A stretch of 64,000 nucleotides of DNA from Verrucomicrobiota bacterium (GTDB lineage: Bacteria > Verrucomicrobiota > Kiritimatiellia > CAIQIC01 > JAGNIJ01), in contig DAISJM010000002.1 in the NCBI GenBank assembly GCA_036821485.1, positions 3,771 through 67,770 of the forward strand, in the 5' to 3' direction. Below, in pieces: positions 2,410 through 57,600 of the stretch; within the stretch, counting starts at the first letter, position 1, and every line of letters begins with the position of its first letter. The position numbers and the translations under genes are program-made. The notes under the pieces were generated by a model that saw only the letters and a program-made list of their open reading frames with translations, searched no databases and was not told where the DNA came from.

Positions 2410-4839
2410 TTAAACTTCCGTCTCGTCGGTCGGATTCTGCGGAATCTCTCCGTCGAGGTCGATCAGAATTTCCCGCGGATCCGAACCACACGGCGGGCCA
2501 ACAACCCCGCGCTGCTCCAACAGGTCCATCAACCGCGCCGCCCGCGTGTACCCAATCCGCAGCCGCCGCTGCAGCGACGAGGTGGACGCCCGCTTCGTCT
2601 GGCGGATAATCTCGATTGCCGAATCAAGCAGGTCATCCTCCCCCATATCGGGCAAGTCGGGGGCGTTGCTGTCCATCTTGTCCTTGATGGTGTTTTCGTA
2701 CTGCGGCTGCCCCTGCTTCTTGATGAAATCGACGATTCTCCGCATCTCCGCGTCCGTGGTCATCGTGCCCTGCGCGCGGGTCAACTTGCCGCTGCCCGGC
2801 GGCAGAAAGAGCATATCGCCCTTGCCCAGAAGCTTGTCGGCACCGTTGGCATCGAGGATCGTGCGGCTGTCCACCTTCTGCGCCACCTGGAAGGAAATAC
2901 GCGCCGGGAAGTTCGCCTTGATCGTGCCGGTGATGACATTCACCGACGGCCGTTGTGTGGCGAGGATCATGTGGATGCCCACCGCACGCGACAACTGCGC
3001 GAGCCGGGCAATCCCGGTCTCGATTTCCGCCTGCGCCACCAACATCAAGTCCGCCAGCTCGTCCACCACGATCACGATGTATGGCAGCCGGTCCGGCGGC
3101 TCATCGCTCGGCTTCTCAGCCTCGCCCGGCGCGCCCTCGAAAAGTTCGGTCTGCTTCAGAATCGGCCGGGTGTTGTAACTCTTGATGTTGCGCACACCGA
3201 CCTTCGCGAAAAGCTTGTAGCGCTTCTCCATCTCGTTGATCGCCCAGCGCAGTCCGATGCTGACCTTCTTCGGATCGGTGATGACCGGAACGACCAGGTG
3301 CGGCAGGTGGTTGTAGGTGGAGAACTCGACGATCTTCGGGTCGATCAGCATGAGGCGCAGCTCGTCAGGCGTGCGCGACATCAGCAGGCCCGTCAGGATG
3401 GAGTTCATGCAGACCGTCTTGCCGGAGCCGGTCGCACCCGCGATCAGCATGTGCGGCATCTCCGCCAGGTCCGCCACAATCTCGTGACCGCCCACGTCCT
3501 TGCCGATGGCCAGCGGCAACGCGGCCTTCCCGCTCTGCCACGTTGCGCTCTCGATGAGCTCGCGCAGGAACACCACCGTCGTCTTCGAATTCGGCACCTC
3601 GATGCCGACCACGCCCTTGCCGGGAATCGGCGCCTGCACGCGGACGCTCTCCGCCTTCATCGCCAGCGCGATGTTGTTGCCGAGCGCGACGATCTTCTCC
3701 AGCCGCACGCCCGGCGCCGGCAAGAGCTCGTACCGCGTAACCACGGGGCCGCGCTCGACATTCGTCACGTCGACCTCGATACCGAACTCTGCAAAAGTCT
3801 CCTTCAGCACCACCGCACTGGCTTGGAAATCGCCGCGAATTTCCCGGTCCTTTTCAGGCGGTAACGGGTCCAGCATGGAGACGGGCGGCAGTTTGAAGGC
3901 AGAATTGGTCTGGCTGAAGAGGGGCTCCGGGTTGACGGGTTCCGGCGCGCGGACCGGCTTCGGACGTTCCTTCTTCGGCGGAGGCGGCAACTCCTCGACC
4001 TCTTCCTCCACCTCGGGAATCTCCGGCTCGGGCACCGCTCGCGCACCCCGTCCGGGCGTGATGATAACCGCCGGCCGAATGGCGGGTTTTTGCACAGCCG
4101 CCTCGCGCTCAGCCTTCTCCTGCTCTTGCTCGCGCATGACGTCTTCCAAACGCCGGCGCTGCTTCTCAACCTTGCGCTGCTCCCGCTCAATCTGCGACCG
4201 TTCATCGCGGTGCTCCGCGATCTTCTCATCCACCTTCTTAAACAGCGCCACGGCCAGCACCCCAATCGCGTGCGCAATCTGGAGAGGATGAATCTCGATG
4301 AAAAGAATCAGGCTGATCGCCAACAACGACGCCGCGATAATGCCCGTGCCCACCGTACCCAGCCACCGCACCAGCATTTCATCGGTCAGAAAGGACCCCA
4401 CCACACCACCCGGCCCGCAGGTGTTAAGCTTCTCCACAACCCCTTCCCACGCACCGGGTTGTAAATCGAAGATACAAAGCAGCGCCAAGAGCATCACGGT
4501 CAGCCAAACCGCCTTCGGCCAAACGCGCCCCTCGCGTTTGAAAATGAGGAGCAGGCCGATGATCATCAGCCCCGCCGGCAACAGATAGGCCCCAATGCCG
4601 AGGGCCATGAAGAAGAAGAAGGCAGTCCACGCGCCCACAGGACCGATGAAATTCTCGGCAGGCCGGTTTGGCGGCGATTTCAGCAGGGGAATATCGCCCG
4701 GTGCATAGGAAAACAGGCTGAGAAGAAACAGGAGGGCCACCGTCACCAGCAAAATGCCCCAAGCCTCCCGCCACCCGGTTCTAGCTATTTCCTTCCTTAC
4801 CGCCATGGCCGTACAAAATAGCAGTACCCCACGCCTCAA
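2410..4839 (-). CDS. ftsK: DNA translocase FtsK (FtsK/SpoIIIE family)
   Basis: 809 aa; N-terminal polytopic membrane domain, Pro/Glu-rich linker, ATPase core with Walker A GATGSGKT, and a C-terminal gamma winged-helix ...[29 protein letters not shown]. Confidence 0.96.
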   Translation of the reverse strand: [809 protein letters not shown]

Positions 4840-4940
4840 GCAAGCGCGACCGCAACGACCGTTGGGGCTTCAGTATGGCAGACTTCGATGCCAAGACCTT
4901 CGACCATTACGACAGGGTCAATAGCGGCTTGGCGCGACGA

Positions 4941-5228
4941 TTACCCGAAGGACGGAGCTGTGGCAGTCGTCCACAGGAATCCGCCTGATGGATTGATGCA
5001 TGAGAAGTAGATGAGGAAGGACCGCAGGAGGCTGACATCGGTGATGGCCATGTACTCATCCAAGTTCCCCGCCGCATCGTAGGAACAGAGGACCTTTGAC
5101 TCACCGCCGTAGTCGGCCTGCACCAACCGGTATTGAGCGTCGTAGCTATACTTGACCGTTGTCCCCGCCTCCGCGGCAAGAACACAACCTAGCAGCACGA
5201 TCCCCACTAACCACCAACGCTTGTTCAT
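4941..5228 (-). pseudogene. signal-peptide plus YD-repeat N-terminal fragment (RHS/YD family gene remnant)
   Basis: MNKRWWLVGIVLLGCVLAAEA (signal peptide) followed by two YD repeats (YSYDAQYRL..., SYDAAGNL), then unrelated low-complexity sequence and a stop after about 95 aa. Far too short for an intact YD-repeat protein. The upstream in-frame extension to 5360 is unlikely to be coding. Confidence 0.5.
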
Positions 5229-5310
5229 GAACCCCCCTTCGCAAGCTTCATGCTTCTCTTTTTTTTGCAGGCTAACTTCGCCTATTCGACATCCAAGGAC
5301 CGCCCCCGCA

Positions 5311-5883
5311 CTAGAGAGGGATGCAAAAGGGTATGAAGTGCCGGTACTTCTTTTCTTCAAACTTCAACGTCTTCTTCTCCCCCCAACATGACAGCTCTAC
5401 CTCAAGTCTCCCGTCCCGGACTACACCACCCTCAAGCCTCACTGACAATATTGTGCCGCGGAAGATCTCTGTCTCTTGAACGGATGACGGAGCGACAGCA
5501 GCCCCATCAATCTTTTCAAAGATGACATCTCCCAGCCCACCGGAATGCACAAGCTTGAGGATATTCGTTTCGTGAGGGGGATACAGAGCCTTATCGGTCA
5601 TCGGCACAATCGGTATGAAAGCAGGCCCCACCCAACTCATACGATCAGCCAGAACAGGATACACCACAACCTCATTGGTTGTCCCCATAACGAATTCATA
5701 TAGAGGAGGCTTATACTGCCCAAATGAGGGCTCTCTGCTGCGAGTATGCCACCCCCCTTTTTCCACCACATGAAAGCCATCCTCTAAATGCACAAGCGTC
5801 AGGTAATCGGCCGAATCCACGACAGAACACCCGCCCACCAAGCAAACCAGTACACAGGCCGCAGCCAGAACGAGTCTATTCAT
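5311..5883 (-). CDS. hypothetical lipoprotein
   Basis: MNRLVLAAACVLVCLVGGCS has a lipobox LVGGC; about 190 aa with no recognisable domain. The apparent upstream extension in the ORF track is encoded by the transposon inverted repeat and is rejected. Confidence 0.6.
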   Translation of the reverse strand: MNRLVLAAACVLVCLVGGCSVVDSADYLTLVHLEDGFHVVEKGGWHTRSREPSFGQYKPPLYEFVMGTTNEVVVYPVLADRMSWVGPAFIPIVPMTDKALYPPHETNILKLVHSGGLGDVIFEKIDGAAVAPSSVQETEIFRGTILSVRLEGGVVRDGRLEVELSCWGEKKTLKFEEKKYRHFIPFCIPL

Positions 5884-5905
5884 CACCACCACCCTGACAC
5901 CCTTT

Positions 5906-5931
5906 GGGGTCAGACCTACAAATAACAAATA
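5906..5931. repeat. left terminal inverted repeat of the transposase element
   Basis: Exact reverse complement of 6988-7013. Confidence 0.85.
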
Positions 5932-5934
5932 GGC

Positions 5935-6945
5935 TCATTCCAGCACCCCGAGGCTTCTCTCCGCCTGCTCCAACTTCCGCCGCAGCCCCTTGTCTGTCTT
6001 GACCAGCCGATCCGTTCGCCTCACCTGCCAACTGACCGCCGATCCCCACTGGAGCCCCAGCTCCCGCGCCACCTCCCGTTGCGTCAACCCGCTATGCCGA
6101 CTCAGCAACAGCGCCGCCAGCCCCCGCGCGCCCTGCCCCCTGCTCCGACAGCCAATCTCCTCGACAGGCACCCCCATCACCTGCGACACCGTCTTCAGGA
6201 CTCTCCTCGGCGCCACCGCCACCACCTGCCTTCGAAACGTCGTATCCTCCGGCCTCTTCAACCTGCCAACCTGTTCCGCCCCCACCTCCCGCATTCTCTC
6301 CATGAATCCCTCTCCGCCGATCCCCTCACTCGCCCCCTTCACCAACTTCTGGACTTCCTCGTCCGTCTTTGCCAACCCCTGTTCCACATACTTCCGGTAC
6401 GCCGAAGGCCTCCGCCCTTTCTGCCCCGCCAACTGTGCCAGCACCGGCCCCATCTCCAATCCCTCAATCGCCCTTGCCCTCCCCGCATAGGCCGGGTAGC
6501 TGCTCCAGCGATAGCCCCGCAAATACCGAACCTGCTCTTTTAGCGGCCTTTTCTCGATCTCCCCGACATGCACCGGGTTCAAGTGTACATACCGGCTCAG
6601 TTTCAGCAGGTACTCATCCCCCTCCACCGGCTTTCCCCCAAACCGACCCTGCAACAGATGTCCCACCCGCCGGTGCCTCTTGTTGAAGTACATCGTATAC
6701 GCCGTCATCAGCGACTGCATGAATCGGCTGATATTGGCCCCCGGTGTCTCCACCAGCAGATGCACGTGATTGTTCATCAGGCAGTACAGGTACAGCCTCA
6801 CCCCGTGCTTCCCTGCCTGCTCGCTCAACTGATCTAGGAACCGCCCACGATCCCCGTCATCCCGAAAGATATCCTGCCTCCCGTTCCCCCGAACGGTCAC
6901 GTGGTAGATCGCCCCCTCGAACACAATCCTTAGTTTTCTCGCCAT
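5935..6945 (-). CDS. IS200-like HUH (Y1) transposase fused to a DnaA C-terminal-like HTH domain
   Basis: 336 aa; the HUH motif is NHVHLLV; the catalytic Tyr helix AYTMYFNKRHRRVGHLLQGRF fits the IS200/RayT pattern; the C-terminal ~90 aa (SQVMGVPVEEIGCRSRGQGARGLAALLLSRHSGLTQREVARELG) resembles DnaA domain IV. Confidence 0.85.
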   Translation of the reverse strand: MARKLRIVFEGAIYHVTVRGNGRQDIFRDDGDRGRFLDQLSEQAGKHGVRLYLYCLMNNHVHLLVETPGANISRFMQSLMTAYTMYFNKRHRRVGHLLQGRFGGKPVEGDEYLLKLSRYVHLNPVHVGEIEKRPLKEQVRYLRGYRWSSYPAYAGRARAIEGLEMGPVLAQLAGQKGRRPSAYRKYVEQGLAKTDEEVQKLVKGASEGIGGEGFMERMREVGAEQVGRLKRPEDTTFRRQVVAVAPRRVLKTVSQVMGVPVEEIGCRSRGQGARGLAALLLSRHSGLTQREVARELGLQWGSAVSWQVRRTDRLVKTDKGLRRKLEQAERSLGVLE

Positions 6946-6986
6946 ACCCGCCTTCCTACCACCCCTTGCCCTCTCCGTCCACCCTC

Positions 6987-7466
6987 TTATTTGTTATTTG
7001 TAGGTCTGACCCCGGAAAGATCGGAAAGATTGCTTGCAGATCTACTCCCAAAGCTACTGAGTATCAGGCGCCCAAGGGAGGTCATCGTGGCCCACCCAAC
7101 ACCAAGAATGAAAATATTGCTGACAGCAGCATTCACGTAATCGAACACGTTGAAGTTCACAAAATCCTTGCTGTTCACCGGATTGGCAAGGAGAGCTAGA
7201 AGGCATAGCGGAGGAAAGCCCAGGAAAAGAACAAGCCCTGTTACGGCACCGACCGCGCGCTGTGCGAATGATGCAACTCTGAGAGAACAGAATATGAACA
7301 CGAGTCCCGACAACGCGGCGAAGTACAGGAAAACGGGATATCCTTCGGCAAAGAAGAACCCGATCGCGTTCTCTCTTTGGCTTTGCAGCGGGATGCTGGC
7401 AACGACGGAGATAGACGCCACACAACACACAATCGCAGAACCCAGTCTTAGCCTTTCAGTACTCAT
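6987..7466 (-). CDS. small 4-TM membrane protein, candidate RHS immunity protein; 3' end modified by the transposon insertion
   Basis: Starts 10 nt after the stop of the RHS C-terminal gene on the same strand. Four predicted TM helices. The final codons GVRPTNNK and the stop are encoded by the right inverted repeat. Confidence 0.55.
   Translation of the reverse strand: MSTERLRLGSAIVCCVASISVVASIPLQSQRENAIGFFFAEGYPVFLYFAALSGLVFIFCSLRVASFAQRAVGAVTGLVLFLGFPPLCLLALLANPVNSKDFVNFNVFDYVNAAVSNIFILGVGWATMTSLGRLILSSFGSRSASNLSDLSGVRPTNNK
6988..7013. repeat. right terminal inverted repeat of the transposase element
   Basis: Exact reverse complement of 5906-5931; it overlaps the last 8 codons and stop of the upstream 4-TM ORF. 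Confidence 0.85.
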
Positions 7467-7475
7467 CTCAGCACT

Positions 7476-8903
7476 CTATGGGAAGGAAGCCCGAATCACG
7501 GTGTTGGCGCTCGAAGTTGAGGATACGGAACCCCTCGATCCACGGGCTCCAATCGATATTGCTCCGCCATTCACTGGCGCGAGAAACACGCTGCGGGATA
7601 TTTCATTGGGGGTCGTCTGGGAGTCATGAACAATGGGCACCCCCGCAGCACGCAGACCGTCCGCCACAAGAGAACCACAGGTATACTCACTGCCATCAGA
7701 GGACTGAATACCGACTATCGCACCATAGTCATACCCGCCGAAGGTGCCTCCAACAAGAGCCTGCCCCGCAAATTTAAGAAGCCCAGCTTCATCAACCGCG
7801 CCGTTTGGTCGCATGATTTGGAATGTCTTCCCGTCCAGACTGTCCGGGGCATCAATAACAACACCGTCGCCAGGACGAGCCGTTAGAATACCATCCTGCA
7901 CCCTAATGCCAACATGCCCATACACATCTCCGGGAGTATTTGCATCTGCAGTGAAAATAGCGATGATCCACTGAATGATATTGTTATCGACATAGAGATA
8001 CACATCCCCAACCCGTCCCTGCGCCCAACTCTCCCCCCACCCCCACGGGTCGATGAAGTTCACCGGATCGCCGTGGCAGTAGGCGTACAGATTCAACCCG
8101 CCCGGAAGGCCAATCGGATCTTTCGTGAGCCACCGTCTCAGGTCCGCCGCGTAGTACCGCGCTTTGATGTAGTACAGCGACCCACCCTCGTGATACGCCC
8201 CATACCCGCCCCCGAACGTATACGGCGTCTCCACCCCGCCTGCCTGATCCAGCACTTCTCCGTACGGCGAATAGGCGTACTCCGCCACCACCGCCCCGTT
8301 GGTGTCCGTCAGCGCCAGCGTCGACCCCTGCTCATCCGCGTGGAAGTAGTACACCGCTCCGTTTGTTTCCACCTGCGCCAGCAGCCCCCGCGCGCCCCAG
8401 ATGTAGTACCGCACCGGCAGCCCGTTCGTGTCCGCCTCCATCAGCACGTTGTGCAGCGCCGCGCCACGATCCAGCACGAAATGCCGGGTGCCTTGCAGGG
8501 AATGCCGGGTCACCCGATCCCCCAACCCGTCGTATTCATAGGCGCTGGCCGTTCCCTCGTTCACCACGTTCGTCATCCGATTGTCGTGGTCGTATCCCAT
8601 CGCCAGCCCCATCCCGTTGGAGACCAGGTTCCCATTCGGATCGAAGTAGAAGGCGTTGGTCGTCCACGCCTCATCACCCGGGGCCGCAACACGAAGCGTC
8701 TGCGAAAGCCGATCGGCCCCGTCGAAGGTCATGCACTCCACCTTCGGCTGCAGGTCCCCCACCCGCCCCGCCACGATCTCCTCTTCCATCTTAAGCCCCA
8801 GCCCGTCCCGCGTAAATACCCGTTCCAGAAATGCCGTGGCACCGAGAATATAGGAGAATCCCGCCAGCCTCTGTGTATCGTCCCATTCAAACACCCCGGC
8901 CAC
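7476..8903 (-). CDS. 5'-truncated RHS/YD-repeat protein (orphan C-terminal fragment) with a variable C-terminal toxin domain, possibly a permuted papain-fold (LRAT / NlpC-P60-like) enzyme
   Basis: Multiple YD repeats (YEYDGLGDRV, YYFHADEQGSTLALTD, YAYSPYGEV). RHS core end RYYAADLRRWLTKDPIGLPGGLNLYAYCHGDPVNFIDPWG (DPxGL-type). A ~190-aa C-terminal extension with GDVYGHVGIRVQDG (like the LRAT His box) and YTCGSLV (like the NlpC/P60 YDCSGLV Cys box). The ORF opens with GTG directly after an in-frame TAA, so the N-terminal ~1000 aa of a normal RHS protein are missing. Confidence 0.8.
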   Translation of the reverse strand: MAGVFEWDDTQRLAGFSYILGATAFLERVFTRDGLGLKMEEEIVAGRVGDLQPKVECMTFDGADRLSQTLRVAAPGDEAWTTNAFYFDPNGNLVSNGMGLAMGYDHDNRMTNVVNEGTASAYEYDGLGDRVTRHSLQGTRHFVLDRGAALHNVLMEADTNGLPVRYYIWGARGLLAQVETNGAVYYFHADEQGSTLALTDTNGAVVAEYAYSPYGEVLDQAGGVETPYTFGGGYGAYHEGGSLYYIKARYYAADLRRWLTKDPIGLPGGLNLYAYCHGDPVNFIDPWGWGESWAQGRVGDVYLYVDNNIIQWIIAIFTADANTPGDVYGHVGIRVQDGILTARPGDGVVIDAPDSLDGKTFQIMRPNGAVDEAGLLKFAGQALVGGTFGGYDYGAIVGIQSSDGSEYTCGSLVADGLRAAGVPIVHDSQTTPNEISRSVFLAPVNGGAISIGARGSRGSVSSTSSANTVIRASFP

Positions 8904-9231
8904 TTAGGGTCAGCCCTCACGGTCCCCCGCGGATGAATCCGACCGGGCGGGAGATGATGTTCTGTGCGAGAGAAGAAACGACGAGCAGTTCAAGAAGGCA
9001 GATACTTAGGAAAGAGAAATGAAACCCGAGTCGATGGACATGTTTCCGCGGCGCGAGACTCCGTCGCATGCGATGCTCCCCTTGGTGGGTCCTTTTCTAC
9101 ACCCAATCCCCGCTCTCTGACTAGGGGGGGTATCTTGTAGGATGTTCCTGACAAATGGTCCGCTCCATTCCGAGACTCGACAATCATCCCGGAAATCCGC
9201 ATTGTTCTGACAGGTGTAGCCCACAAGGAGC

Positions 9232-26461: not shown

Positions 26462-26507
26462 GCCACAAAAGCAAGAGCCCCGCCCTGCGTTAGCAGGACA
26501 GGGCTCT
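26462..26507 (-). terminator. putative rho-independent terminator downstream of the PEP-CTERM gene
   Basis: Imperfect 15-bp stem AGAGCCCCGCCCTGC/GCAGGACAGGGCTCT (13 of 15 pairs) with a GTTA loop at 26474-26507. On the minus strand it is followed by CTTGCTTTTGTGG. Confidence 0.5.
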
Positions 26508-26526
26508 CAGATCACTTTGGTTCAAA

Positions 26527-27102
26527 TTACTTGGCAAAGCGGCGACGGAGGACCATCACCAACGCGCCAAGACCCATGAACGCCCACGTAGCCGGCTCAG
26601 GAACCGCTTCATACGAATTCGCATTCAATGTCTCGCCAAAACCTGTGGTCGTAACATCGATGTTGTAATCGATCGGAGTATATGGCGCCGTCATGTCCGT
26701 AGTATTTGTCGTATAACCATTGAAATACCACATGCCCTGTGTAACGGCTGTGGGGCTTCCAACATCGAATACGCGGACATAGTAGTAGCCGGAAACGAAG
26801 GATTGCGTGTACTGCGGCGCGATGAAATTGGCCCAGGGACTGGCCGTAATGGTGAAATCCGCCCACCACTGATCATCGCCACCGACATAATGCGGATCGG
26901 AGGCATCCGGCAAATCAATGGTCCCATTAGCCCCGCAGAAGATCAACTGAGCCAAAGCCGATCCGCCAGCGTTCAGCAAGCCATTCGGATAACTTGTGTG
27001 CCCAAAAAAACCATCAAGGGACATCCATGTCGTCCCAATTTCGGCCGTCGCAAGCGAGGCCCCCACCGCCACAATCAACGCCACCAGAGCGATCTTCTTC
27101 AT
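26527..27102 (-). CDS. PEP-CTERM sorting-domain secreted protein
   Basis: N-terminal signal peptide; C-terminus VPEPATWAFMGLGALVMVLRRRFAK matches the PEP motif, TM helix and basic tail of PEP-CTERM. Confidence 0.85.
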   Translation of the reverse strand: MKKIALVALIVAVGASLATAEIGTTWMSLDGFFGHTSYPNGLLNAGGSALAQLIFCGANGTIDLPDASDPHYVGGDDQWWADFTITASPWANFIAPQYTQSFVSGYYYVRVFDVGSPTAVTQGMWYFNGYTTNTTDMTAPYTPIDYNIDVTTTGFGETLNANSYEAVPEPATWAFMGLGALVMVLRRRFAK

Positions 27103-27161
27103 CTAATCTCCTCCTGTACTTTACGTTCTCGCCATTATGCGCACAAATACCAGCCAGCCTG

Positions 27162-27869
27162 TTACGGCCAAGTGTAAGGTTTGCTTTCGACCCAATCAAC
27201 CGACTGCGTCGTCCTCACCCAGAAAGCCTGCCCAGGATGTATCACCAAATCAGCCGCCCCATCCCAGACGCCACCGCGAGGATTCTTGGCGTATGGTCCC
27301 AAATACTTATTTGATTCAGAAGACCAAATATAGAGCAGCGAGTTAGCGGGCAACTTCTTGGCCAAATCTGTGTTCGTCCAAGCGGTGTCCACGGGATAAG
27401 GATACCCCAATATGTTCAGTCCAAAGATGCCATCCACCGTGGTGGTGGGAGCTGTGCTCCTGTCGGGAACTTCACCCATCATGAAGACGGGGTAGCTGTT
27501 GGAGGCCGCGCTCTCTGGAATCTTAATCCAAAATCCTTCGCCACGGCACAGGAGATTGGATCCCCCAACACCCCAGCCGCCACGTGGATCGCGAGCAACA
27601 GTCGTCTTATATGTCCTGGTGTCGTAGTTCCAAAGATAGAGGAGCGTCGCAGACGGAAACTGAGTTGAATCAAGCAGGTTTGACAGCACTGTGCAACCAC
27701 CTTGACTGCCATCCATGGATTCAAAATCGAGCCGAACAAGGGCAAACTTGCCTCTCTCTGCATCGACCTTCACGTACCCCACCGCGTTGCGGCTGAGTAC
27801 TTGGGTCTGACCAAAGGCCAGCGTACCAGTCACGACCACCGCCAGCATCACCAGAACCATTCTTTTCAT
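27162..27869 (-). CDS. hypothetical secreted protein
   Basis: Start at MKRMVLVMLAVVVTGTLAFGQ (signal peptide); no recognisable domain; upstream of and co-oriented with the PEP-CTERM gene. Confidence 0.55.
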   Translation of the reverse strand: MKRMVLVMLAVVVTGTLAFGQTQVLSRNAVGYVKVDAERGKFALVRLDFESMDGSQGGCTVLSNLLDSTQFPSATLLYLWNYDTRTYKTTVARDPRGGWGVGGSNLLCRGEGFWIKIPESAASNSYPVFMMGEVPDRSTAPTTTVDGIFGLNILGYPYPVDTAWTNTDLAKKLPANSLLYIWSSESNKYLGPYAKNPRGGVWDGAADLVIHPGQAFWVRTTQSVDWVESKPYTWP

Positions 27870-27984
27870 GACGAGCCTCCCAATGGTGAATTCAGTTTTG
27901 CCGATATTCTTACACCCTGTCGAGAGCAAAGTATAGAACACCCGCGTTTATCCACTCATCGACAGTAGTAAGTTACCCATGCGC

Positions 27985-28008
27985 CATATACGTGTCAACA
28001 CGTATATG
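27985..28008. promoter_or_regulatory. perfect 10-bp inverted repeat CATATACGTG-N4-CACGTATATG followed by a T-run, in the divergent intergenic region upstream of the sensor kinase
   Basis: Seen directly; followed by TCTTTTTCT. It lies ~108 bp upstream of the histidine-kinase ATG and ~115 bp upstream of the divergent secreted-protein gene. Confidence 0.45.
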
Positions 28009-56691: not shown

Positions 56692-57477
56692 TCAAGTGCG
56701 CATGCGGTGCCAGACCAGTAACAGTCCGCCCAGCAGAAGCATCAGCGCCGTTGGCTCGGGGATTATTGCAATCCGCGAGAAGGTCACGGTCTCCTCGGGG
56801 CCCAAATCCGAGCCCGTGCCGTTGATGACTCCGACGTAGAACCTGGTGTCCTGGTTGAAGGGGGTAGTGGCAACCGTCATGCCCGAAGTCACGATCCTGC
56901 CCGAACCCGCGTCATACCAAAGCGCCGCCGTCGTCCCGTTGAGGTCCATGCCAAAGGTGAATCCATCGACTGACGAGCCGACATTGAGGAAACCTAGCTT
57001 GTAGCTCTCATTGTTGTAAGACGTGTGGTCCGCGTCTGTTTTCTCAAACAGGTTGAACCAGAAGGTACCGTCGTTCAAACTGAGTTCGGCCATAACCCCG
57101 TTGGAGTTGTTGTAGTCATCCCACGGCTCGGGATCTGTGTTCCCGTCCGTGGTCGAGAGATACATACGCGCAGCCACGCTATTGTTGCTTGTAAGGTCCC
57201 AGCTCTGAACGGTCATCTGGTAGGATACAAGGCCATTCGCAACCCAGGAATTCGACGAACCTTCGGTGACGATGCCCGACTGCCGCCAGCCGGAAGAACC
57301 ATCTGATGGATTCAGAATCAATGCCCCGTTCACGCTTCCCTGACAGGATCCCATATGGTTCCACTGCCAGTTCGTACCCAAGCTCGTACCCGGGAATGTG
57401 TCCACCAAAGCCGGAGCCAAAGTAGCTCCCAGAATCAGACCAACGATCACCATCCCAATAGTTGCCGCCCTCTTCAT
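56692..57477 (-). CDS. PEP-CTERM sorting-domain secreted protein
   Basis: Signal peptide; C-terminus IPEPTALMLLLGGLLLVWHRMRT. Confidence 0.85.
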   Translation of the reverse strand: MKRAATIGMVIVGLILGATLAPALVDTFPGTSLGTNWQWNHMGSCQGSVNGALILNPSDGSSGWRQSGIVTEGSSNSWVANGLVSYQMTVQSWDLTSNNSVAARMYLSTTDGNTDPEPWDDYNNSNGVMAELSLNDGTFWFNLFEKTDADHTSYNNESYKLGFLNVGSSVDGFTFGMDLNGTTAALWYDAGSGRIVTSGMTVATTPFNQDTRFYVGVINGTGSDLGPEETVTFSRIAIIPEPTALMLLLGGLLLVWHRMRT

Positions 57478-57600
57478 ACGCCCTCCCCTTTATTGATGAA
57501 ATACGGGCACATCCTATTACGCAAACGTTTGCTGTCAACAAGGAAAACTTAGCGCACGACACATAGCAGGAGGACTTGTCCCGTCAGACAAGGCGAGACT

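Follow-up and report, generated by a model that had tools for sequence, protein, structure and literature searches.

What occupies the DNA between the conserved genes ftsK and uspA in the 64,000-nt stretch of a Kiritimatiellia contig analyzed here (DAISJM010000002.1; hereafter the window), and which of its parts are debris? The interval comprises ~4 kb of accessory DNA, entirely on the minus strand, in a host genome of ~61% GC from the Planctomycetes–Verrucomicrobia–Chlamydiae (PVC) group. Our answer, to which we assign a probability of roughly 0.78, is that the region represents the remnant of an Rhs polymorphic-toxin array of the Sec type, which varies between strains and was inserted between uspA and ftsK in a single Kiritimatiellia species. 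An earlier note on this DNA had listed an rhs fragment, a four-transmembrane (4TM) gene, a transposon, a lipoprotein gene and an open reading frame (ORF) with a signal peptide and YD repeats, all on one strand; each of these was present on the minus strand at its reported place. The features, including the two flanking genes, are as follows:

2410–4806, minus: ftsK, conserved flank (798-aa gene call, Pfam FtsK domains, synteny)
4941–5228, minus: YD gene, a 95-aa small secreted protein in which the signal peptide is followed by two YD beta-hairpins, the conserved helix ITDxxYLxSFLxYFS and a variable tail (RHS_repeat match)
5311–5883, minus: predicted lipoprotein, 190 aa, lipobox LVGGC
5900–7020, minus: insertion sequence (IS)-like Y1 unit, 1.12 kb (1121 bp), extent shared with sister contig L121
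5935–6945, minus: Y1 (HUH) transposase, 336 aa, resembling transposases associated with repetitive extragenic palindromes (REP-associated tyrosine transposases, RAYTs), with a C-terminal helix-turn-helix (HTH; Y1_Tnp E 6e-14)
6987–7466, minus: 4TM, a 159-aa four-transmembrane protein and candidate cognate immunity protein, starting 9 nt after the rhs stop
7476–8903, minus: rhs fragment, 475 aa (TIGR03696 Rhs_assc_core match)
7476–8033, minus: toxin tip (CT_w; aa 291–475 of the fragment), a 186-aa domain following the core motif DPIGL...DPWGW
8034–8903, minus: 5′-truncated Rhs shell/core with intact core domain; it corresponds to the final ~290 aa of a protein that has ~2000 aa in related loci
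8904–8929, minus: 26-nt junction filler between remnant and rhs homology, a deletion scar (alignment to L113/L115 diverges exactly at 8930/8929)
8930–9069, minus: gene remnant, the first 47 codons (signal peptide) of a secreted-protein gene, by homology to L113/L115
9238–10080, plus: uspA-type tandem Usp gene, conserved flank (Pfam Usp E 2e-44)

A synteny scan with FtsK as query, taking one genome per species, returned 80 related loci, the nearest relative sharing 69% FtsK identity. In the closest other-species relatives that keep uspA at this place (L001, L002, L016 and L022), rmuC–uspA immediately precedes ftsK; the tblastn matches in L001 are separated by ~130 bp, with an estimated ~100 bp between the gene starts. 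None of the five island proteins had a match in the 80 loci. Adjacency of the flanking genes in these four relatives, together with the missing island proteins, supports an insertion, in line with the accessory island and the ancestral ftsK–uspA neighborhood that the earlier note had proposed. The window's exact proteins also occur in a metagenome-assembled genome (GCA_964523715.1, contig CAZGBH010000004.1), and exact look-up found the UspA protein on 14 contigs.

The rhs fragment carries the hallmarks of a polymorphic toxin that has lost its 5′ end. TIGR03696 matched aa 211–288 (E 1.2e-21; 76.9 bits vs. a cut-off of 32.5), and the autoproteolysis motif DPxGL...DPxG[LW] is present as KDPIGL...DPWGW, followed by the 186-aa tip. 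Alleles P0002 (core 97% identical) and P0004 (80%) diverge completely after DPWGW/DPWGL, and this switching of tips behind similar cores marks the window rhs as a true polymorphic toxin. Its first codons align to residue 183 of P0003 and to residue 526 of the main rhs of L096, stop codons lie immediately upstream, and positions 8904–9231 yielded neither rhs nor stub homology. As main rhs frames in related metagenome loci span 1987–2068 codons, the window copy has lost roughly three quarters of the shell, together with any export signal; indeed, the fragment lacks a complete YD-repeat shell (~1000 aa or more), an N-terminal trafficking or secretion domain and a signal peptide. The earlier description of this gene as truncated debris of a polymorphic-toxin locus therefore stands. 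The 64-kb window contained no other rhs homology, and hence no full-length rhs upstream of the fragment in the same array; the apparent orphan would instead be a main or upstream copy truncated by deletion. For the tip, Pfam (E ≤ 10) and PDB sequences returned only noise, a tip-only homologue search recovered no relatives but also failed to recover the query protein itself, and a single-sequence AlphaFold2 prediction gave no usable model (mean confidence score, pLDDT, 31.6). By eye, GHVGI...EYTCGS leaves the impression of a Cys/His papain-like motif.

How the truncation arose can be read from sister strains, whose contigs were gathered by exact look-up of UspA (ATG start) and of the 4TM cluster. 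Their flanks are 97–99% identical to the window, while the content between uspA and ftsK differs and falls into four types, listed from the uspA side:

Type A (window, L111, L112, L117, L081, L082): 47-codon remnant, truncated rhs with CT_w, 4TM (159 aa), Y1 unit, lipoprotein, YD gene
Type B (L121, L119, L120, L123): gene for the 436-aa protein cut ~50 nt further in (~codon 64), Y1 unit, 23 nt, last 10 nt of the CT_w ORF, 4TM (147 aa), orphan rhs, 93-aa gene
Type C (L113, L115): intact gene for a 436-aa secreted protein, 303-aa Laminin_G_3 protein, further secreted protein
Type D (L124, L122): CT_w and 4TM contiguous, orphan rhs 22 nt later; neither Y1 unit nor lipoprotein

The orphan rhs of type B is P0004, a 268-aa protein with a different tip. 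In the window, the remnant ORF (9069–8917) comprises 50 codons, and L113 and L115 share its N-terminus (MRRSLAPRKHVHRLGFHFSFLSICLLELLVVSSLAQNIISRPVGFIR) identically but continue to 436 aa. Since homology to type C stops at 8930, inside the 436-aa gene, the truncation points to a deletion, most simply read as a single event reaching from codon 47 of that gene into the rhs shell. Type B, with end points of its own, represents an independent deletion. The 330 bp called non-coding in the earlier note are thus not entirely so, as 8930–9069 holds the gene remnant. In other PVC loci, LamG_3/TSP3 proteins directly precede the ~2000-aa main rhs. Both deletion ends abut the Y1 element in one sister lineage, as does one of the two breakpoints in the window.

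What had been called a transposon is indeed a mobile element, which can now be refined to a 1.12-kb RAYT-like Y1 unit. Its transposase matched Y1_Tnp at 52.7 bits (cut-off 23); the closest NCBIfam model, NF047646 (REP_Tyr_transpos), gave 60.9 bits, below its cut-off of 80, and NF033573 (IS200/IS605) 19 bits vs. a cut-off of 55, so that the enzyme falls outside IS200/IS605 by score. On either side of the gene lies a copy of a perfect 26-nt inverted repeat (GGGGTCAGACCTACAAATAACAAATA; 5906–5931 and 6988–7013; chance expectation 0 in 100 shuffles), in the orientation known from REP sequences around RAYT genes. Within the 64 kb counted, the 26-mer occurs only as these two copies. In L121, L119, L120 and L123, the unit (97–100% identical; 97% over window positions 7020–5900) occupies another site: it follows 4TM in the window and precedes it in type B, and each of its ends coincides with a synteny breakpoint. 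The unit is therefore neither positionally stable nor, in this sense, a single-copy, vertically inherited gene. From its position we infer that it caused the deletions.

Two further observations concern this element. In L096 (8333–9452), a 350-aa Y1 transposase, 34% identical to that of the window and bounded by a perfect 24-nt inverted repeat (GGGGTGACATCTCAACATTCAACA), lies right behind the YD gene that closes an Rhs array of three cassettes, the only such case among 21 other loci, which hints that this type of transposase recurs at Rhs arrays. The inner-left part of the window's unit (6960–7013; TAACAAATAAGAGGGTGGACGGAGAGG) is very similar to the spacer that naturally follows the 4TM stop codon in sister strains (L119, 595–635; TAACAAATAGGAGGGTAAATGGGGAGG), which could reflect a recombination footprint or a shared ribosome-binding region.

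For 4TM, several observations are consistent with an immunity gene. The CT_w–4TM pair is colinear in L124, so that a 5′-truncated rhs and a small gene travel together with the tip, as in orphan modules. Both deletion lineages kept 4TM, which is the best, though indirect, pointer to an immunity gene under selection. Judged from position and retention, 4TM is likely the immunity protein for CT_w; Pfam and NCBIfam contained no matching family. Joining to the Y1 unit has changed its last 13 codons in the window, which end in ...SASNLSDLSGVRPTNNK rather than in the ...SASNK of sister strains. The lipoprotein, likewise without a match in Pfam or NCBIfam, was found on window-type contigs only. It had been suggested as a second immunity or accessory factor; a second immunity role against this toxin is unlikely given that L124 and L122 carry the toxin–4TM pair without it. 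As CT_w–4TM is directly followed by another rhs in type D, the lipoprotein lies outside the toxin/4TM unit and belongs to another cassette, the toxin of which the window has lost; it probably survives from that deleted cassette as an orphan immunity or accessory gene.

The ORF next to ftsK, previously taken for a decaying N-terminal stub of an rhs gene with its frame breaking down, is an intact gene under purifying selection. Compared with the sister allele in L087/L089, it shows 28.7 synonymous and 8.3 non-synonymous differences (ratio of non-synonymous to synonymous substitution rates, dN/dS, 0.06) and two indels, both in frame. Its dS of 0.69 far exceeds that of the adjacent ftsK (0.146), which places the boundary between core and accessory DNA at the 3′ end of the YD ORF, ~4955. 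A full HMMER scan of 1.84 billion representatives (a word-index search had returned just two near-identical proteins) identified ~25 cluster representatives of 80–117 aa that match residues ~8–80, including the part considered decayed. That part, ITDVSLLRSFLIYFS, is in fact the most characteristic conserved motif of the family; in seven longer proteins that were inspected, which matched through generic YD repeats only, it was absent. Pairwise comparisons within the family gave proportions of synonymous differences (pS) of 0.29–0.63 vs. 0.09–0.21 for non-synonymous ones (pN). AlphaFold2, run on a 27-sequence alignment, predicted a signal helix (3–18), four strands forming two YD hairpins and a second helix (65–76) at a pLDDT of 75; among PDB folds, Rhs and teneurin shells were matched at non-significant E-values. 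Pfam and NCBIfam recognize the generic YD repeat and hold no dedicated model for the family. To our knowledge, a small signal-peptide/YD protein recurring in Rhs arrays has not been described, a point at which our searches were not aimed.

Genomic context was compiled for 21 metagenome loci, found with a 9-sequence alignment, and for L083. In 14 of the 16 cases with enough upstream sequence, the window and L083 included, an rhs core and a presumed immunity gene come before the YD gene on its own strand; another rhs immediately follows it in seven instances, namely the main gene in L094 and 5′-truncated orphans in L093, L095, L096 and L100. By sequence, the family would thus sit after toxin/immunity pairs and directly before main or orphan rhs genes. 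We tentatively propose, at somewhat less than even odds, that the protein is a regular functional part of Sec-type Rhs arrays in PVC bacteria, maybe acting on Rhs proteins in trans, e.g. by supplying or capping the shell edge or by aiding export or folding of orphans. That the protein is an Rhs partner outside the cytoplasm is speculative.

Two other explanations of this ORF were tried and rejected. Stub and downstream rhs do not form one frameshifted gene, as frame offsets differ between loci, and a circular permutation, with the YD ORF and the truncated rhs brought back together upon excision, is contradicted by the lack of attachment (att)-like direct repeats at the ends, by the internal position of the YD gene in the L083 element and by the self-contained nature of the family. 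An apparent tandem duplication of the YD-gene start in L088 was likewise dismissed as an assembly artefact: at 366–375, the ENA scaffold joins two strain haplotypes across Ns.

Related loci offered several observations of their own. The YD gene of L107 (7908–8173) and of L108 (6337–6575) is frameshifted after ~60 codons, i.e. real decay does occur elsewhere in the family. In L104 (1652–3400), a Transglut_core domain (E 7e-9) lies in the N-terminus of a ~2000-aa main Rhs preceded by LamG_3 and TSP3 proteins. Both orphan rhs genes of L096 (3488–5320 and 5700–7700) begin with a conserved ~75-aa leader (M..ARTWRWLAVPALLWP...ASFTHP.PREALIR...), which was not found in the main rhs, and their ORFs overlap the preceding YD gene; by sequence, these orphan proteins may be exported independently. 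L083 (9631–17106) harbors a 7.43-kb element in tRNA-Val, with 46-nt perfect direct repeats of the tRNA-Val 3′ half, an integrase, an excisionase and a divergent HTH pair; its cargo consists of a 5′-truncated rhs starting ~60 nt from attL, an ankyrin-repeat (Ank) immunity-type gene and the small YD protein. The same Ank/YD/HTH module stands behind a full 2068-codon rhs frame in L092. Modules of rhs, immunity gene and YD gene thus travel horizontally, as in L083.

Base composition of the island is a mosaic. Against a 64-kb baseline in 500-bp windows (mean GC 0.611, sd 0.032), the toxin tip, 4TM and the lipoprotein gene (GC 0.50–0.54) rank among the lowest, and GC content at third codon positions (GC3) is 0.505, 0.54 and 0.555, respectively. 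The rhs core and the transposase, in contrast, are at host level (GC 0.62–0.64; GC3 0.81 and 0.79, vs. 0.82 in ftsK and 0.79 in uspA), so that the AT-richness ascribed to the whole island applies to the former three genes or domains but not to these two. Rhs loci classically combine a GC-rich core with AT-rich tips and immunity genes. A promoter/terminator scan returned one promoter-like site vs. 2.0 expected. Elsewhere in the window, a second low-GC patch (26500–28000; GC 0.52–0.54) encodes, on the minus strand, a 191-aa protein (26527–27102) that ends, as far as the eye can tell, in a sorting signal of the PEP-CTERM kind (VPEPATW...RRRF), and another of 259 aa (27162–27941), the N-terminus of which resembles a signal peptide; a third such patch spans 56750–57500.

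Put together, these data suggest the following history, the order of events in which we infer. The ancestral locus, laid out as in related PVC loci, would have begun with secreted LamG-type proteins and a ~2000-aa main rhs ending in CT_w, followed by 4TM, further orphan cassettes of rhs tip and immunity gene, the small YD gene and ftsK. In the window lineage, one deletion, with its ends at codon 47 in the first of the secreted-protein genes and inside the rhs shell, would have removed the delivery part, and a second rearrangement at the end of the Y1 unit the cassette or cassettes between 4TM and the lipoprotein gene. Because signal peptide and about three quarters of the shell are missing, the remaining locus cannot deliver a toxin and is most likely defensive in function: 4TM, and probably the lipoprotein too, may protect against sister strains that still fire matching toxins, and the truncated rhs may serve as an orphan cassette reusable by recombination. 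The scenario of horizontal acquisition followed by a hit from a mobile element is accordingly right about the insertion and the involvement of such an element, but too simple, as a larger locus appears to have been cut by at least two independent deletions.

Several points weigh against this history. The immunity role of 4TM and of the lipoprotein is read from position only, and the dN/dS of 4TM (0.33–0.50), based on very few substitutions, is uninformative. No contig joins the upstream genes of type C to CT_w, so that the ancestral order is pieced together, partly from other taxa; the part played by the Y1 unit in the deletions derives solely from its position at breakpoints; and the absence of a full-length rhs applies to the 64-kb window, not to the rest of the genome. 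Finally, the rhs fragment has a GTG start 14 nt past the stop of the remnant ORF, behind the former promoter region of that gene, which makes expression of a cytoplasmic toxin fragment conceivable. Truncated rhs and 4TM might then constitute an active intracellular toxin–antitoxin-like module, as has been reported for the Salmonella orphan rhs (PMC7043789). An open ORF with intact core and tip, and the identical arrangement in independent samples (L111, L112, L117 and L081), would fit such a module. Yet start codon and ribosome-binding site are weak, and type B deleted the toxin while keeping 4TM alone, which argues for selection on immunity rather than on the pair; we therefore regard an intracellular module as unlikely. 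Slightly less probable still is that the island is left over from an integrase-borne element that brought the rhs–immunity–YD module by site-specific recombination. The tRNA-Val element of L083, with its homologous module, shows that this route exists, and it has the integrase, the tRNA/att site and the direct repeats that typify such islands. None of the three was detected in the window: it lacks a tRNA, every island ORF is accounted for with no integrase-like one among them, and the ends carry no direct repeats. In sister strains, moreover, the same site is larger and differently filled, which fits erosion in place.

Two further alternatives concern single components of the eroded array. The Y1 gene could be a domesticated, immobile RAYT with two REPs that has nothing to do with the rearrangements, as its best NCBIfam match, the flanking inverted repeats typical of RAYTs (PMC5581495) and the L096 homologue with repeats of its own might suggest. 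That near-identical strains have the unit at two sites, both coinciding with a breakpoint in synteny, speaks for a mobile element instead, as do the sub-threshold family score and the confinement of the repeat to two copies beside the gene, and we give immobility as poor a chance as the intracellular module. Still more remote is the idea that all island content is decaying, with the YD ORF as the N-terminal stub of an rhs whose frame is broken. True, the ORF starts like some mini-Rhs proteins (52% identity to P0198 over residues 6–60), lies at the island edge beside ftsK and has frameshifted counterparts in L107 and L108. However, its low dN/dS with in-frame indels, the family-wide excess of pS over pN, and the length and post-YD motif shared by ~25 independent representatives but not by the longer proteins inspected are at odds with decay; besides, main rhs N-termini in related loci differ from it, L104 even carrying its Transglut_core domain there.

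An eroded Rhs array thus remains our preferred reading, and it shows the erosion of an Rhs warfare locus clearly in a little-studied phylum. Two lineages that independently lost delivery and toxin but retained the putative immunity gene would fit selection for defence against weapon-bearing kin. For genome annotation, three sequence families without annotation (toxin tip, 4TM and lipoprotein) are flagged, and the conserved YD protein recurring in Rhs arrays is easily dismissed by eye as a pseudogene stub. Should it indeed be an Rhs partner, it would add a component to models of how Rhs toxins outside type VI secretion systems (T6SSs) are built or exported.

A literature search pairing Kiritimatiellaeota with Rhs gave no match. 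Among Y1 enzymes, that of the window resembles RAYTs and IS200/IS605 transposases in being a single-domain HUH/Y1 protein (HVH motif in NNHVHLLV, tyrosine in RYVHLNPV), and RAYTs also in lying between inverted copies of a ~25-nt repeat. It departs from both in scoring below the family cut-offs and in its extra C-terminal HTH region, from IS200/IS605 in its perfect terminal inverted repeats, and from typical RAYTs, which are single-copy, vertically inherited genes flanked by inverted REPs (PMC5581495), in having moved between sites in sister strains. Retention of orphan immunity genes is known from polymorphic-toxin loci such as T6SS effector/immunity arrays (PMC5361080), and the two independent deletion lineages that both keep 4TM are reminiscent of it; here, however, the system is an Rhs array with presumed Sec export and a putative immunity gene, and no T6SS cluster is involved.

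The closest parallel is provided by Rhs systems, in which the occurrence of orphan rhs-CT/immunity modules behind the main genes is well established (Poole et al. 2011, PMC3150448). As in enterobacterial Rhs, the core in the window is conserved, GC-rich and terminated by DPxGL...DPxG[LW], the tip is variable and AT-rich, and an immunity-type gene stands right behind it; a 5′-truncated orphan copy, cassettes that vary between strains and an IS-like element complete the resemblance. The corresponding element associated with classic E. coli Rhs elements is H-rpt. Unlike in enterobacteria, the lineage belongs to the PVC group, no T6SS-type N-terminal or PAAR context was observed, and the main genes of related loci have, by sequence, signal-peptide-like N-termini and a transglutaminase-like domain, with LamG/TSP3 proteins ahead of them; tip, 4TM and lipoprotein belong to no known family, the window holds no main rhs, and PVC arrays recurrently include the small YD gene. 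Overall, the locus is of an ordinary kind, an Rhs orphan array that has eroded and carries an IS, here in an unusual lineage; what is new about it, if modestly so, is the family of small YD proteins.

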